Made by a program: the position numbers. From positions 1,806 through 65,805 of the forward strand of contig CAYRWQ010000001.1 in assembly GCA_964428075.1 (NCBI GenBank): a stretch of DNA of 64,000 bases. Reading direction: 5' to 3'. Shown here piece by piece: positions 1 through 6,000 of the stretch; position 1 is the first letter of the stretch; the number at the start of each line of letters is the position of its first letter. The DNA comes from an uncultured Bdellovibrionales bacterium. Lineage in GTDB: Bacteria > Patescibacteriota > Minisyncoccia > Moranbacterales > UBA1568.

Positions 1-3000
1 GGAAACTTGGCAAACTCAGCCAACAAATAAGCCGTTGCATTGGCTGCGCCTCCCCCAAGTGGCGGATATTCATAATTGAGGAAAAGAACCTTCATACCTT
101 TCATTCAAAAAACAGAAACAAGTATCCTCAAACACCAATACCATAATACACGAACCCTTCCGCCTCCATTTCTTTGCGCTCAAAGATATTGCGTCCATCC
201 ACAACCACTCGGCCCTGCATCGCTCGTGCTATTTCAGATGCCTCAATTGTGCGCAGTTCATCCCACTCGGTGCACACAATAAGAGCATCCGCCCCTTCGA
301 GGGCTTCCAAGGCTGACTCGGTATACACCATACGCTTATCAGGGAACGCCCTCTTGAAACTTTCGATAGCCACCGGATCAAAAGCGCGCACCTTGGCTCC
401 CGCTTTCAGGAGAGCGGATGCGATATACTGTGCCGGTGCTTCACGCACATCATCGGTACGTGGCTTAAAAGAGAGTCCCCAGAGTGCGATCTTTTTACCT
501 TTGTGTGATTTCCAGTGTTTGGCCAAAAACTCAACTGGGCGCATTTTCTGGCGATCATTCAACTCATCAGCTGCCTCGATAATCGTAAACCGCATCCCAT
601 ACTCTCTGCCAGTCTCCTGAAGAGCCTGAACATCCTTCGGAAAGCATGAACCACCATACCCGATACCCGCATAGAGAAAACGTGAGCCGATTCGAGTATC
701 TAAACCCATACCCTTAGCCACCTCTTTGACATTTGCACCCGCTTTTTCGCAAAAATTTGCAATCTCATTAATAAAACTGATTTTAGTCGCCAAAAAAGCG
801 TTAGAGGCATATTTGATGAGTTCAGCCGAACGGATATCGGTCAACACCACTGGCCGACCGTTCCGAGCAATCGGACGATAGATTTTTTCCATCAACTTCC
901 TCGCCTCATCTGAATTCACTCCGACCACGACCCGATCCGGATTCAAAAAATCCTTGATAGCGGCTCCCTCGCGCAAAAACTCTGGATTAGAGACCACATC
1001 AAATTTCCCTTTTTCGCCACTCGCATGCAAAATAATATCACGCGTTTTATCAGCAGTTCCGACTGGTACCGTCGACTTATTGACAAGTACTTTATACCCG
1101 TTCAAATTTTCCCCGAAAGTTTTTGCGACTGAAAAAACATACTGGAGATCGGCCTGACCGGTTTTCGGATTCTCCGGTGTCCCCACCGCGTTAAAAACGA
1201 CCTCCGCACCCCGAATCGCTTTACCGATATCAGTCGTAAACGAAATGCGCTTCTCCGTGACATTCTTCGCCACCAACTCTTCGAGACCGAGTTCATAAAT
1301 CGGCATCACCCCTCGCTTCAACTTTTTAATCTTCTCCGCATCGACATCGGCACACACCACCGTATGTCCCAACTCTGCCATACACACTCCAGAAACCAAC
1401 CCCACATACCCCGTACCGACAAAAGCCAATTTCATACGCTTGCTCCCTAAACTAAATATTACATTACCGGATTATCACCTCTTTGATATTATAATTCATA
1501 CGATTACGCGCCTGATAGTAATTCCGTACCGTAATATCCGCCAAAAGTCCAGAAATGAAAAGTTGTACACCGATAAGTACGAAAAAAATACCAACCAGTG
1601 GCCAGATACGATCTGCTAATGAGGCTTCAAATAAGACTTTTTCGATAAGCATCCACACCAGGATACCCCCACCAAATCCAGCCAGGGTCACCCCTACTCC
1701 ACCGAAAAGATGTAGTGGGCGATGCGAATATTTCCTCCAAAACCAGATGGAAAGCATATCAACAAATCCCTTCATTCCACGCTTCCAGTTGTATTTTGTC
1801 GTGCCGTGAACACGCGGGTGATGACTCACCTTTGCTTCAGCAACCCGGAAACCCTCAAGTTGTAACAACGCGGGGATGAAACGATGCATCTCACCGAAAA
1901 GATCGACATCTTTGAAACATTCGGCTCGGTATGCTTTCAGGCTACAACCGGAATCATGTATATTATCGTGGATAAGCAGGTGGCGAAGGAAGTTGGCAAT
2001 ACGCGATGGAATTTTCTTGCTCCAAGGATCCTGACGTTTATGACGCCACCCAGAAACGACATCGAATCCTTCATCAATTTTAGCGAGCAACAGAGGAATA
2101 TCCGCAGGGTCATTCTGCAAATCGCCATCAAGCGTGACAATAATCTCTCCACGTGCCGCCTTGATTCCCGCGTCAAACGCCGCGGTCTGCCCAAAGTTTT
2201 TCCGAAAGACAATCAATTTCACGGGATGACAGAGTGCCGCTACCTTCTGCGTCTGATCCTTGGATCCATCATCAATGAAGATGATTTCAAATGGTTTGCC
2301 TAACGCAGAAAGTGTCGAATGGATTTTCCGATGCAATGTTTCAACATTTCCATCCTCATTATATAGAGGCACCACTACGGACAAATACGGCCGGTCACTC
2401 ATACTCATAACGTATACGCATTAAGCTTTTCCGCAGTATAACGAGTTATCTGACCATACGCAACCAAACGTGCCAGATATAGTTCTTCCGAATCCCGCAG
2501 AAACGAGTATACTAGAGACACAATCCGCAGACCCGATTATTACCATCATTATGCTCTCTAGCGTCTTTTTTTCCGACAAATTTGCCAGTCAGGAGAATCG
2601 CCTCCTCTCCATTTTTGGGATATTGTTCGCCATAAACACGCTCTTGTTCATCTCTCTGCAAACAAGTTCACTGACACTGCTTCGCCTCACCGCTCACAAT
2701 ACACCATTTTATGCCGGTTTCGTCTTTCTCGGTATCGGAATCTGTGGCACTCTATCCTACTACAATCGACCGACCGCCTGGCGATCCATCCTTCGTAAAC
2801 TCCTCCTCACCACTTTCCCCGCCTGGTTTTTTCTTACCTACGGCCTGATCGAATCCAAAAATTTTCACGTGTCTTTCCAGATAGCACACAGCGCTTACAT
2901 CATGCTGGTCGGTCTCTTGCTTGTCATGGTTGCATACGTCCATCAACAAACTCCTACCCGGCAGGTTCCGTTTGGTTTTCGCGACTGGTGTCGGAACCAG

Positions 3001-6000
3001 GGAGGACTCGTACTCCTGATTGTATTTATCAGCACACTTATCTTCTTTAGTTTCGCCCTCATCCGCCTCACCCGCTTCGCCGCGGTAGATGAGCCGCTCT
3101 GGTACAATGGCCGTATCGGAAAATACTGGCACAAAATAGAATCCCTTGACTGGAGACGTACGAATATTAGCGATAAACCAGGGATCACCGTAGCCTGGGC
3201 GACCGGTCCGGGTCTGTGGTTTAAAACACCCAAAGAATACAAAACCATCAAGTACGAAGGCGAGGCCTACAATGCGAACTCGGAGAGCATTGAAAGTTTT
3301 TACCTTGCCTTCCGCCTACCACAGCTTCTCGTTATCACGTTCTTTCTTCCATTCTTCTACTTTTTTCTCGAAAGACTATTCGGACGGAACACTGCTCTTT
3401 TTTCATATGCCTTTCTCGCGACCTCACCGATACTCATCGGTATGTCAAAAATCATTAATCCCGATTCACTCCTCTGGATTTTTACCCCGCTATCCGCCCT
3501 TGCTTATCTCCTCTTCCTCAAAGAACGCTCGTTTCGATACCTCATCTATTCTGGTATCTTTCTTGGTCTCGCTCTCCTCACCAAGTATGTCGCTAATATC
3601 CTGTTCATCTATTTCATCGGGCTCATCTTCCTCGAATACCTGTATCACCGACCGGAACAAAAGACATTTGGTCCGTTTCTCAAACGCTCCTTTGTCGAAC
3701 TCGGTATCCTGACCTATGCTGCCCTCGCTACCTTCTACATTTTCTTCCCGGCCGTCTGGATCAAACCAGAGAAACTCATTACGTCGACGCTCTACAGCCA
3801 AGCCTTTGAGAAAATCGCGCCACTTTTTCTTATCCTGCTTGCCTTCATCCTGCTCGATCAACTCGTCAATCGTTCTCGCATTGTGAACTCAACTGTTGCT
3901 TTATTTTACTCCATCAGACGCCCTCTGGTCATCGGTATCGGATCATTCTTTCTGGTCAGCCTACTCGCCGTTTTGTTTGTTTCCTGGAATGGGATGTTCC
4001 CTTATAACTTTTTCGAACTCCTAGCATCACCCAAAACCATCAGTGGTCAAAGTGATTTTATCGGTATATTCCTGACTAATTTCTACCCTCTCATTTTCAG
4101 TATCTCCCCGTTTGTCCTTTTGCTCCTGATTTTTGCTCCGCTCGCACTCCTCAAACATGCCTTTCTCGAAAGCAACGATGGACGAATTACACTCTACTTC
4201 ATTATCTTGATTCTCCTGTATTATCTTGGCGCGACCATCAATGGTGTTGCGATGATTGTCCGTTACCAAATAATCCTCTTCCCAATCGTTGCTTTCCTGG
4301 CGGGGATCAGCCTCAGCTGGATCCTCAAAATTCTCGGACAATACCTAAAACCGCTGAAATATGTCTCACCCCTCGTTATAGTAATCGGTATTCTTGCCAT
4401 GGGTATAGGAACCCTAGCCGTCACACCTTTCCCGCTCTCGTACGCCTCATCACTCCTACCTCATGACTATCACACCAATGTCAAAGACATGGGCTCAGGA
4501 AGTTATGAAGCCGCTCAATACCTCAATACCATCCCTAACGCCGAAAAACTGCTCATCTGGACCGACAAGGACGGCGTGTGCAAATTTTTTGTTGGCCGTT
4601 GCAAACGAGGGCGAAACTATGATGCACTCCGTCGCGACGGACTTGACTATATCGTCGTTTCTTCGGACAGAAAGAACCGAACAGCCAAAATGATGGTCTC
4701 GGAAATCTTCAATCAAAAACCGGACTTGATTCGCTTCGACCAATATTACACAAAATCAAATCCAATCTTTGAGCTCCTTATCAACGGACGTCCGTCACAG
4801 TATGTCCGAGTTTACCAGTTTGGCCAAGAATGAAATCTACTCACTCCATCAAAGCTCCGTATTGCGATGCGTTTTAAAATAATGTGGCAATGCGATGAAC
4901 GAAATAATCATCTGGAGAAAACGAGAAAGAAGCGCCACAGTCACCGAAACTTCAGCGCTCACCCCGACCAGAGTAAAAAAAGTAACATATGCCCATTCCT
5001 TCACACCAATATTATTGATGGAAATAGGTATCGACGAAACAATCGTGACGAGAAAAATGACACTCAGAAACACTGGGAGATCCAGTGTACTGTTGATCGC
5101 ATGAAAGAGCATCCAGTTCGACAACCCGACCCCCACCAAGGCAAACAAGATTGAATACAGACTCCCGGATATCCAAATTCCTTTTCTTGTAAAACCAATA
5201 ACCTCTTCCAAAACGCGCCGTAATCGGGAGGGTAGCCAGAGGAGTATGCGGTGCAACCAAGGCCGAAAATAGGCGTAGGTCACGAAAAGATCCCCTAACA
5301 GAAAAACGGTCAATCCGAGCAATGTCACGCGAAACGCTATACTTGAAGCAAAAAAATGCCACAATGGTATCGAGCAAAACAAGGCCAGAAGTGCCGTAGT
5401 CCAGAGTCCAATGAAACGATCAAACACAACAGTCGAAAGTGACGCCGCTTTTGCTTCCGTTTTTCGTGCCAACCACAGCCCGCGATATGCATCGCCACCC
5501 AATGTGGAAGGAAGGAAGTTATTAATAAATGCTCCTGTCAAATACGCGAAGAAACCCTCCTGAACCGTGAAAATCAACCGTTGATGCTTATACTTATACG
5601 AGGCAATCATCTGCCATTTCTTCGCAGAGATGAGCAGAGCAATCAGTTGCAATACCACATAGCCCAGGAGCCAAAATAGGGAAATATCCCGCAGCTGCAC
5701 AAACACGACTGACCACTGTACTTTCTCCACCAACCATAAAATCAGTCCGGTAGCAATACCGAACTTCAGGAGGACGATCATCCATGTTTTTCTCTGTAGC
5801 ATACACAAACGTAAGTGTTTACAGTATACCTTTTCGAATGTACCCCCACAATCGCCACACTCTCCACTCAAGATGAGTGTGGCAGGACACGCTGCCAAGA
5901 ACCCACTTTGGCATCCCCGACTCATCGGATCACACGACACCCCATCCATGCCATATTGGCTCAAACGACTTCGTGTAAAGAAAGCAGACTGATACTGAGA

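Follow-up and report, generated by a model that had tools for sequence, protein, structure and literature searches.

A conserved Candidatus Moranbacteria locus with the probable make-up of a polyprenyl-phosphate-sugar-dependent glycosylation module

We describe here a gene locus at the left end of a 64-kb stretch of DNA (the window; 64,000 nucleotides of contig CAYRWQ010000001.1, assembly GCA_964428075.1), which probably encodes a module for extracytoplasmic glycosylation in a Moranbacteria cell that draws on polyprenyl-phosphate-linked sugars. Three proteins stand at its centre: a family 2 glycosyltransferase (GT2; 1464-2408, minus strand), a membrane glycosyltransferase of the GT-C fold (2470-4833, plus strand) and a membrane protein of the UPF0104 family (4849-5802, minus strand). 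All three open reading frames (ORFs) are present, and the layout given in a preliminary description of this DNA is borne out by their coordinates and strands, with the GT2 and GT-C genes divergent, and the GT-C and UPF0104 genes convergent with 15 bp between their stop codons.

Homologues of the GT-C protein (471) and of the UPF0104 protein (551) that carry a source name come nearly all from Candidatus Moranbacteria/Moraniibacteriota or Patescibacteria, and the exceptions look like mislabelled genome bins; the organism is a member of Candidatus Moranbacteria (Patescibacteria, or Candidate Phyla Radiation, CPR). Many of the third-party (TPA) assemblies that contain the module (L007, L008, L015-L018 and others) are titled 'uncultured Bdellovibrionales bacterium', and one orthologue each is labelled Undibacterium and Clostridiales, all of which are probably taxonomic mislabels of CPR genome bins. 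A literature search found nothing specific on glycosylation in Moranbacteria or Patescibacteria.

The synthase, the transferase and the candidate flippase

The GT2 protein (314 residues; PF00535 E = 4e-33) is by homology a polyprenyl-phosphate glycosyltransferase of the ArnC/GtrB/DPMS type, because its alignments with ArnC and GtrB span essentially the entire chain and their sequence motif and their lipid-phosphate and UDP contacts are retained, and the GtrB-like sugar synthase of the preliminary description is thereby upheld. In phmmer alignments its residues 9-312 pair with ArnC residues 10-314 (structures 9hwj, 9bhc and 8vxh; E ~1e-46), and it matches the GtrB protein sll0501 over its full length (5ekp, positions 28-327; E 2e-27). 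The metal and base motif DxDLQ(N/D/H) is present as DGDLQN, aligned to ArnC 100-DADLQN-105. Of the ArnC residues that contact the lipid phosphate, R128 is unchanged and R137 has become K, and of those that contact UDP, R205 and K211 are retained while a T stands in place of S210, both the motif and the contacts being those defined in the ArnC structural paper (bioRxiv 10.1101/2025.01.29.634835). The architecture is that of a GT-A domain with juxtamembrane helices and two C-terminal transmembrane (TM) helices, with hydrophobic segments at 234-260 and 263-295, and orthologues across Moranbacteria are 64-85% identical. Assignment as an ArnC equivalog was rejected, with 176 bits on the NCBIfam ArnC model (NF007986) against a cut-off of 529, and no ArnA-, ArnB- or ArnD-like genes were found in the window.

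The GT-C ORF is open from a GTG codon at 2470, which gives 787 residues, although the true start is probably the ATG at 2551 (2551-4833, 760 residues), because orthologues are 745-765 residues long and an identical database protein has 760. The similarity to GT-C families that had been claimed for it held on profile search, the 787-residue form matching the Pfam families PMT_2 with 54.1 bits (cut-off 26.1) and PMT (PF02366) with 43.7 bits (cut-off 22.7), with the PMT match restricted to residues 272-430. A search of PDB chains with both the single sequence and a 52-sequence profile returned nothing significant (the best match was Pmt4, E 0.66), and a comparison of folds was therefore needed; in a structure search the model, which is a confident one, matches only GT-C enzymes that use donors linked to polyprenyl phosphate or diphosphate. 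The previously noted DEP motif is real and lies within AAVDEPLW (VDEPLW at 3085-3102, with D207-E208-P209 of the 787-residue ORF at 3088-3096). V179, D180, E181, L183 and W184 in the 760-residue numbering are invariant in 52 orthologues of 43-70% identity, as are SDKPG (207-211), NPD (303-305, with I302 nearly invariant), TKY..N (344-349), RYQ (571-573) and the C-terminal motif IWTDKDGVCKFFVGRC; the C-terminal domain contains an invariant IWTDKDG.

The GT-C model has four additional N-terminal TM helices (14-35, 51-71, 77-101 and 107-132), then TM1 (152-170) with VDEP opening the first long loop after it, and consists beyond the extra helices of a 13-TM GT-C core and a C-terminal alpha/beta domain of ~135 residues with two invariant cysteines. 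The loop was tested for a cytoplasmic placement, and the model gives instead a topology with the N-terminus inside and the Asp-Glu loop outside, because the motif comes directly after an in-to-out helix and because Lys and Arg follow the positive-inside pattern, with 9 in three predicted cytoplasmic segments versus 2 in two short outside loops. The C-terminal domain would likewise be extracytoplasmic, which the two invariant cysteines fit. The protein has the marks of the GT-C_A class, namely a TM core like those of solved GT-C enzymes and an acidic motif opening the first extracytoplasmic loop, and no single GT-C family is clearly the closest to it.

Several narrower assignments of the 760-residue protein were tried and rejected. 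It is not placed with the GT39 protein mannosyltransferases (PMTs), since Pfam finds no MIR domain and the TM7-TM8 loop of the model contains only short helices, nor with the oligosaccharyltransferases (OSTs; STT3/AglB/PglB, GT66), as there is no WWDYG motif, no STT3 Pfam match and only hints at the level of the fold; a profile of 16 C-terminal domain sequences gave chance-level matches in the PDB and retrieved no OST by sequence. There is no NCBIfam ArnT match that would make it an ArnT orthologue. The idea that the extra N-terminal helices are a fused GtrA-like flippase gained no support, since a Pfam search with 18 orthologous N-termini at E <= 10 found no GtrA and only scattered weak matches to unrelated membrane DUFs. 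Its sole NCBIfam match is to Agl23 (TIGR03663, 'flippase activity-associated'), of which it is not a member at 21.6 bits against a cut-off of 126. Agl23 is reported to have lipid-linked glycan flippase activity (PMC11182771), and PMT_2-like proteins could in principle have a transport role.

The third protein (317 residues) is a UPF0104 membrane protein (PF03706, COG0392; 'PplT', MprF-flippase-domain-like) and a candidate translocator. The LPG-synthase-TM-like identity in the preliminary description is well founded, with a PF03706 (LPG_synthase_TM) score of 115.2 bits (cut-off 33.4; E = 5e-33) in which residues 64-357 of the long ORF cover model positions 1-300 of 302, and TIGR00374 ('flippase-like domain') scores 53 bits (cut-off 43.2). 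Homologue lengths of 300-323 residues back a start at the ATG at 5802, although an ORF reaching as far as 5964 is possible. A PDB search by sequence gave no match, and MprF was found only by fold: with an AlphaFold model of mean confidence (pLDDT) 85.7 as the query, Foldseek ranks 1-6 in the PDB are all MprF (probability 1.00, query TM-score 0.56-0.65, 318-345 aligned columns over the whole query), and the matches below them have TM-scores < 0.25. Because these six MprF structures are the only convincing matches, the protein is predicted to have the fold of the MprF lipid-translocating domain. No match to GtrA (PF04138) was seen among the window proteins scanned, and no GtrA or SMR flippase candidate for the GT2 product was found.

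Conserved partners and gene order

The preliminary description presented a module of three genes, and while the GT2, GT-C and UPF0104 genes belong together as it said, they are not the full set, since two conserved partners had been missed. Directly downstream of the GT2 gene, and in one operon with it, lies a gene for a UDP-glucose 6-dehydrogenase (Ugd; 128-1435, minus strand) of the Ugd/TuaD/AglM type, which makes UDP-glucuronic acid. All three UDPG_MGDP_dh Pfam domains match (E 1e-65, 3e-39 and 3e-30), and the NCBIfam scores are 470 bits for nucleotide-sugar dehydrogenase (cut-off 190), 557 for TuaD and 421 for AglM. The third gene of this operon encodes a GT4 glycosyltransferase, of which the 5' end (~30 codons; 1-95, minus strand) is present, the rest lying beyond the left edge of the window; in a tblastn search the 388-residue GT4 of the related locus L003 is 80% identical over residues 1-30 at positions 95 to 6. 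The operon GT4 has only generic GT4 matches, and its score of 72 bits for monoglucosyl-diacylglycerol synthase, versus a cut-off of 400, is no better than the others.

Gene order was compared in three deep contigs and 80 GTDB species representatives, with GT-C identities of 34-70%. The usual arrangement is a GT-C gene on the plus strand and a convergent operon that runs from the ArnC-like GT2 through Ugd and GT4 to UPF0104. UPF0104 lies within 10 kb of the GT-C gene in 69 of the 80 loci, is convergent and downstream in 68, and is within 750 bp in 31; the loci without it either end close to the GT-C gene (as in L027 and L044) or are also without GT2 and Ugd. An ArnC-like GT2 is found within 10 kb in 45 of the 80 loci, every one of which also has UPF0104, and in 44 of these 45 the GT2 and Ugd genes are adjacent and on the same strand. 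A GT4 gene lies between Ugd and UPF0104 in 60 of 80 loci, and because this is so in most relatives the module therefore comprises at least five conserved genes rather than three. The window and its closest relatives (L008, L009 and L040) show a rearrangement that has placed GT2-Ugd-GT4 on the other side of the GT-C gene; the whole set of genes is still together, and UPF0104 is still beside the GT-C gene. The linkage is also seen on contigs where the module is flanked by housekeeping genes (RtcB, thymidylate kinase), and in L003 a GalE/TviC-like epimerase gene adjoins that of the GT2. Because the arrangement recurs in dozens of species, it is not due to chance.

We also note that relatives have as many as three additional polytopic genes of PMT_2-like or Agl23-like type near the module (L001 10400-12238; L003 6112-7908 and 4574-6100; L004 1-1165). 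These include genes for a 598-residue and a 508-residue protein divergent from that of the GT-C, and one for a 612-residue paralogue (29% identical) between GT-C and UPF0104. In tblastn searches of the window the 598- and 508-residue proteins have no match, and the 612-residue paralogue matches only the GT-C gene.

Other glycan genes in the window

Beyond UPF0104 lie three genes on the plus strand that had not been described. A soluble GT2 of 277 residues (6088-6921; PF00535 E = 9e-24) is a conserved neighbour of the module, with orthologues of 44-73% identity beside it in 19 of the 80 loci. It is followed by a candidate GT2 of the GacI/PpgS type, that is, of polyprenyl-phosphate-N-acetylhexosamine (HexNAc) synthases (6918-7610; 230 residues without TM segments), which scores 155.7 bits over its full length on the NCBIfam PpgS model (cut-off 370) and 115 bits on AglJ. 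The gene for a small DUF2304 membrane protein of the GacJ/Rv3632 family (7592-7984; PF10066 E = 1e-15) overlaps it, and the DUF2304 proteins GacJ and Rv3632 stimulate GacI and PpgS (bioRxiv 10.1101/180810). The trio (6088-7984) travels with the module, in 16-19 loci within the flank limits, and the pair at 6918-7984, missed in the preliminary description, is a further candidate synthase of a polyprenyl-phosphate sugar, of the HexNAc type.

The second GtrB paralogue that had been noted (23587-24543, minus strand) is confirmed as a GT2 of the AglJ-like polyprenyl-phosphate hexose synthase type over its full length, with 250 bits on TIGR04182 (AglJ; equivalog cut-off 325), residues 17-306 covering model positions 2-289 of 293, and with two C-terminal TM helices at 238-262 and 266-301. 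Three further large polytopic proteins, which had been taken to point to additional periplasmic transfers, do exist (12974-14656, 14749-16794 and 58596-60410), each with at least ten hydrophobic segments and with acidic motifs after the first TM helix (EPDDSYNY, PDLDPYKW and GRDQGS). A GT-C nature is unsupported for them, since searches of Pfam and NCBIfam give no match for them even at E <= 5, and hhalign comparison with the GT-C profile gives E values of 0.045-0.57 at a probability of ~1%.

The window as a whole is a glycan-biosynthesis island, with at least 15 GT2, GT4 and GT90-like transferases, seven methyltransferases, an AsnB-like amidotransferase, a carbamoyltransferase, a PglF/PseB-like dehydratase, a Wzx-like protein and sugar-nucleotide enzymes. 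The AsnB-like glutamine amidotransferase (9220-11109, plus strand), near Ugd, scores 603 bits on the XrtA/PEP-CTERM amidotransferase model. AsnB-like enzymes amidate uronic acids in some polysaccharide pathways, and the island glycan may therefore contain uronamides. A NodU/CmcH-type carbamoyltransferase (41386-43230, minus strand) and several S-adenosylmethionine (SAM)-dependent methyltransferases, one of them two-domain (18915-21651 and 24715-26249, plus strand), suggest a glycan that would be heavily O-methylated and carbamoylated.

Two paralogous 427-residue proteins (28482-29765 and 32972-34255, both minus strand) have weak GT90 (Glyco_transf_90) and Glyco_trans_1_2 matches, and their genes flank those of a TylF-type O-methyltransferase, the Wzx-like protein and a 371-residue protein with a sub-threshold GT4 match; GT90-like enzymes are uncommon in bacteria. 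A 285-residue epimerase-like ORF with a TTG start (45026-45883, minus strand) aligns to the Epimerase profile from position 137 onwards only and overlaps the PglF-like dehydratase gene (43621-45084, minus strand) by 59 nt; its start may be set wrongly, or the gene may be degraded. A 1-kb stretch without a large ORF contains a small gene (48752-49039, plus strand) whose product reads like ribosomal protein L27, next to a 145-residue ORF on the opposite strand. Scans of the whole window for tRNAs and Rfam RNAs found none. Along the entire plus strand the GC skew has strongly negative values, from -0.09 to -0.31 per 2 kb, irrespective of gene strand.

A proposed pathway and its alternatives

We propose a pathway in which Ugd, as assigned at the level of its family, would supply UDP-glucuronic acid, and the ArnC/GtrB-type GT2 would load the sugar of a UDP-sugar onto polyprenyl phosphate at the cytoplasmic face. 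The adjacency of GT2 and Ugd in the operon, seen in nearly all relatives, leads us to infer that this sugar is a uronic acid or a derivative of one. The operon GT4 might conceivably have the acceptor or this lipid intermediate as its substrate. UPF0104, to judge from its fold and conserved synteny, would move the lipid-linked sugar to the outer leaflet, where the GT-C protein, through the invariant Asp-Glu that opens its first outside loop, would transfer it to an external acceptor, which could be either the glycopolymer of the surrounding ~50-kb glycan gene island or a protein of the surface or of a pilus. The logic of Gtr-, Arn- and PMT-style transfer on the outer face, as put forward in the preliminary description, stands on the three families, the synteny and the outward loop, although the transfer of a single sugar is not established, given the GT4 in the conserved operon. 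Its presence there suggests perhaps more than one sugar, and leaves room for a lipid-linked disaccharide (Agl-like) or for a GT4-made glycolipid flipped by UPF0104 (Gpg-like).

The pathway has parallels in several known systems. The core of the Arn pathway of Gram-negative lipid A modification (Ugd/PmrE, ArnC, ArnE/F and ArnT) is close in outline, although the locus is without ArnA, ArnB, ArnD and the ArnE/F SMR flippase, no DegT-type aminotransferase was seen among the window proteins scanned against Pfam, its GT2 falls well below the ArnC cut-off, and its GT-C protein has the four extra N-terminal helices and a different C-terminal domain. CPR bacteria are not known to make lipopolysaccharide (LPS) or lipid A. 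The Gtr systems of O-antigen glucosylation (GtrA, GtrB and Gtr*) and Gram-positive three-component systems (CsbB/GtcA/YfhO and GacI/GacJ/GacK/GacL, the second with its GacI/GacJ-like counterpart at 6918-7984) share the logic of a polyprenyl-phosphate-sugar synthase, a flippase and a GT-C enzyme acting outside, although here the flippase candidate belongs to UPF0104/PF03706 and not to GtrA, SMR or MATE/Wzx. The locus is not a Gtr system in the strict sense, as there is no GtrA among the scanned proteins, the host is a CPR bacterium, there is no sign of a prophage, and Ugd and GT4 are extra conserved members of the operon. There is precedent for three-component systems with flippases of varied families (PMC11127046).

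The rhizobial RgtE and RgtA-D,F proteins, as described, offer a precedent for placing a uronic acid on polyprenyl phosphate with an ArnC-like GT2, transfer by GT-C enzymes and a supply of UDP-glucuronic acid. RgtE is a bactoprenyl-phosphate-galacturonic acid (GalA) synthase that works with the ArnT-like GalA transferases RgtD/F (PMC7663294); the Rgt acceptors are lipid A and the LPS core, and the sugar at our locus is suggested by the Ugd linkage only. The GT-C protein is 13% identical to the GT39 PMTs (eukaryotic Pmt1/2/4, and actinobacterial Pmt with Ppm1), from which it is also set apart by the lack of MIR in Pfam, the added helices at its N-terminus and its different C-terminal domain. The synthase linked to it resembles ArnC and not Ppm1/DPM1, and the linkage to Ugd speaks against mannose. 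UPF0104 belongs to PF03706 together with MprF, GpgF and PplT and shares the fold of the MprF flippase domain, but stands alone without an aminoacyl-phosphatidylglycerol synthase domain, and its partners are polyprenyl-sugar enzymes and not phospholipid-modifying ones.

The closest described analogue is archaeal, a neighbourhood of arCOG00897 (AglD-like GT2), arCOG00563 (PMT/STT3-like) and arCOG00899 (UPF0104) reported by Makarova, Galperin and Koonin in 2015 (PMC5898192). The same three protein families are conserved neighbours there, and that arrangement, along with a fusion of the AglD GT2 to UPF0104, led to the prediction that all COG0392 proteins are flippases (PMC5898192). The archaeal neighbourhood is known from comparative genomics only, and the likeness is one of families. 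The locus described here is bacterial, its synthase is ArnC-like rather than AglD-like and is unfused, and Ugd and GT4 are included in the operon.

Several considerations weigh against polyprenyl-phosphate-sugar transfer as we propose it. In the literature we found no UPF0104 member shown to flip a polyprenyl-phosphate sugar; the family's only characterised activity is that of MprF, which translocates phospholipids, and the UPF0104 protein GpgF is associated with a glycophospholipid made by a GT4 (PMC12713373). In most relatives UPF0104 is directly preceded by GT4, so that its substrate could be the GT4 product. The GT-C protein could be fed by any of three candidate synthases, namely the ArnC-like GT2, the AglJ-like GT2 at 23587 or the GacI/GacJ-like pair at 6918-7984; the cytoplasmic glycosyltransferases of the island could be what Ugd serves instead; and the AsnB-like amidotransferase at 9220-11109 suggests uronamide sugars.

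These considerations bear on three alternatives, of which the one that pairs UPF0104 with GT4 rather than with GT2 is unlikely but has the most to be said for it. The GT4 would use UDP-glucuronic acid or another UDP-sugar to make a glycolipid in the inner leaflet, either a glycosyl-diacylglycerol or a glycosyl-phosphatidylglycerol; UPF0104 would flip it, as proposed for GpgS/GpgF and HexSDF, the GT-C protein would decorate or extend it or another acceptor, and the polyprenyl-phosphate sugar made by GT2 would cross by another route. The position of GT4 immediately upstream of UPF0104 in one operon in most relatives fits this, and in Pseudomonas aeruginosa the synthesis of glucosaminyl-phosphatidylglycerol is associated with the gpgSDF operon, whose products are a UPF0104 protein, a GT4 synthase and a deacetylase (PMC12713373). 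MprF-type domains are experimentally phospholipid translocators, and PplT domains occur fused to GT-B glycosyltransferases (bioRxiv 10.1101/2022.03.11.483950). However, the rearrangement in the window and its closest relatives split the two, GT4 staying with GT2-Ugd and UPF0104 staying beside the GT-C gene; the GT4 protein has no more specific match than generic GT4 families, its monoglucosyl-diacylglycerol synthase score being far below the cut-off; and the other route that the GT2 product would require finds no GtrA or SMR candidate, nor does the N-terminal extension of the GT-C protein match a GtrA model.

We give little credence to an Agl-like pathway, in which GT2, GT4 and Ugd would build a short oligosaccharide (such as hexose-uronic acid) on polyprenyl monophosphate, UPF0104 would flip it and the GT-C protein would transfer it en bloc to surface proteins. 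There is a likeness to haloarchaeal N-glycosylation (AglJ, AglM and AglG) in the AglM score of Ugd and in the GT4 between synthase and flippase in the operon, and Foldseek ranks STT3/AglB first for the GT-C protein (E 2e-6 to 1e-4 over ~700 columns), above ArnT/PMT (~3e-3), with the invariant IWTDKDG in its C-terminal domain as a further point in favour. Neither WWDYG nor an STT3 Pfam match is present in that protein, though, a sequence search of the PDB with the profile of its C-terminal domain retrieves no OST, and Pfam assigns its TM core to PMT/PMT_2. The chances are slimmer still that the genes are mere neighbours in a large glycan island, with the GT-C protein using some other donor and UPF0104 acting as a general lipid translocator. 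A window packed with glycan genes (more than 15 glycosyltransferases, with methyltransferases, the Wzx-like protein and the carbamoyltransferase) invites that explanation, as does the proposal that PplT proteins are general lipid flippases, but the genes stay linked across 80 species even where GT-C identity falls to 34%, where the locus has been rearranged or where housekeeping genes flank it, and UPF0104 is present in 45 of 45 GT2-bearing loci.

A combined reading goes further than the polyprenyl-phosphate-sugar pathway that we favor and is quite unlikely as a whole. In it, UPF0104 would be a dedicated polyprenyl-phosphate-sugar flippase and the 760-residue GT-C protein the founder of a new family in an Agl-like protein glycosylation route of Patescibacteria. 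If so, UPF0104 may represent a fourth, evolutionarily unrelated family of flippases for extracytoplasmic glycosylation, common to CPR bacteria and Archaea; the GT-C protein may have an OST-like C-terminal acceptor-binding domain in which IWTDKDG replaces WWDYG; and a uronic-acid-containing mono- or disaccharide, built on polyprenyl monophosphate, may go to surface proteins.

The locus is a bacterial, CPR version of the predicted archaeal arrangement, and its parts and logic were already known; every component comes from a known family, they are combined along textbook lines, and public genomes already list orthologues under family-level names. What distinguishes it are the ArnC-like synthase, the operonic Ugd and GT4, and a GT-C protein with added N-terminal helices and a distinctive C-terminal domain, and the points of note, for a system whose function we infer, are the conservation across the lineage, the pairing with UPF0104, the coupling to Ugd and GT4, and the unclassified GT-C protein. 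In no domain of life are the flippases of lipid-monophosphate sugars well defined, and the five-gene context of GT2, Ugd, GT4, UPF0104 and GT-C is a compact setting for the question of whether UPF0104/PplT proteins flip polyprenyl-phosphate sugars. The CPR or Patescibacteria are mostly uncultivated bacteria with reduced genomes, many of them thought to live attached to a host, and their surface chemistry is almost unknown. A Moranbacteria-wide module that places a sugar, probably an acidic one, on the outside of the cell likely shapes the envelope of these bacteria and their contacts with hosts or phages.

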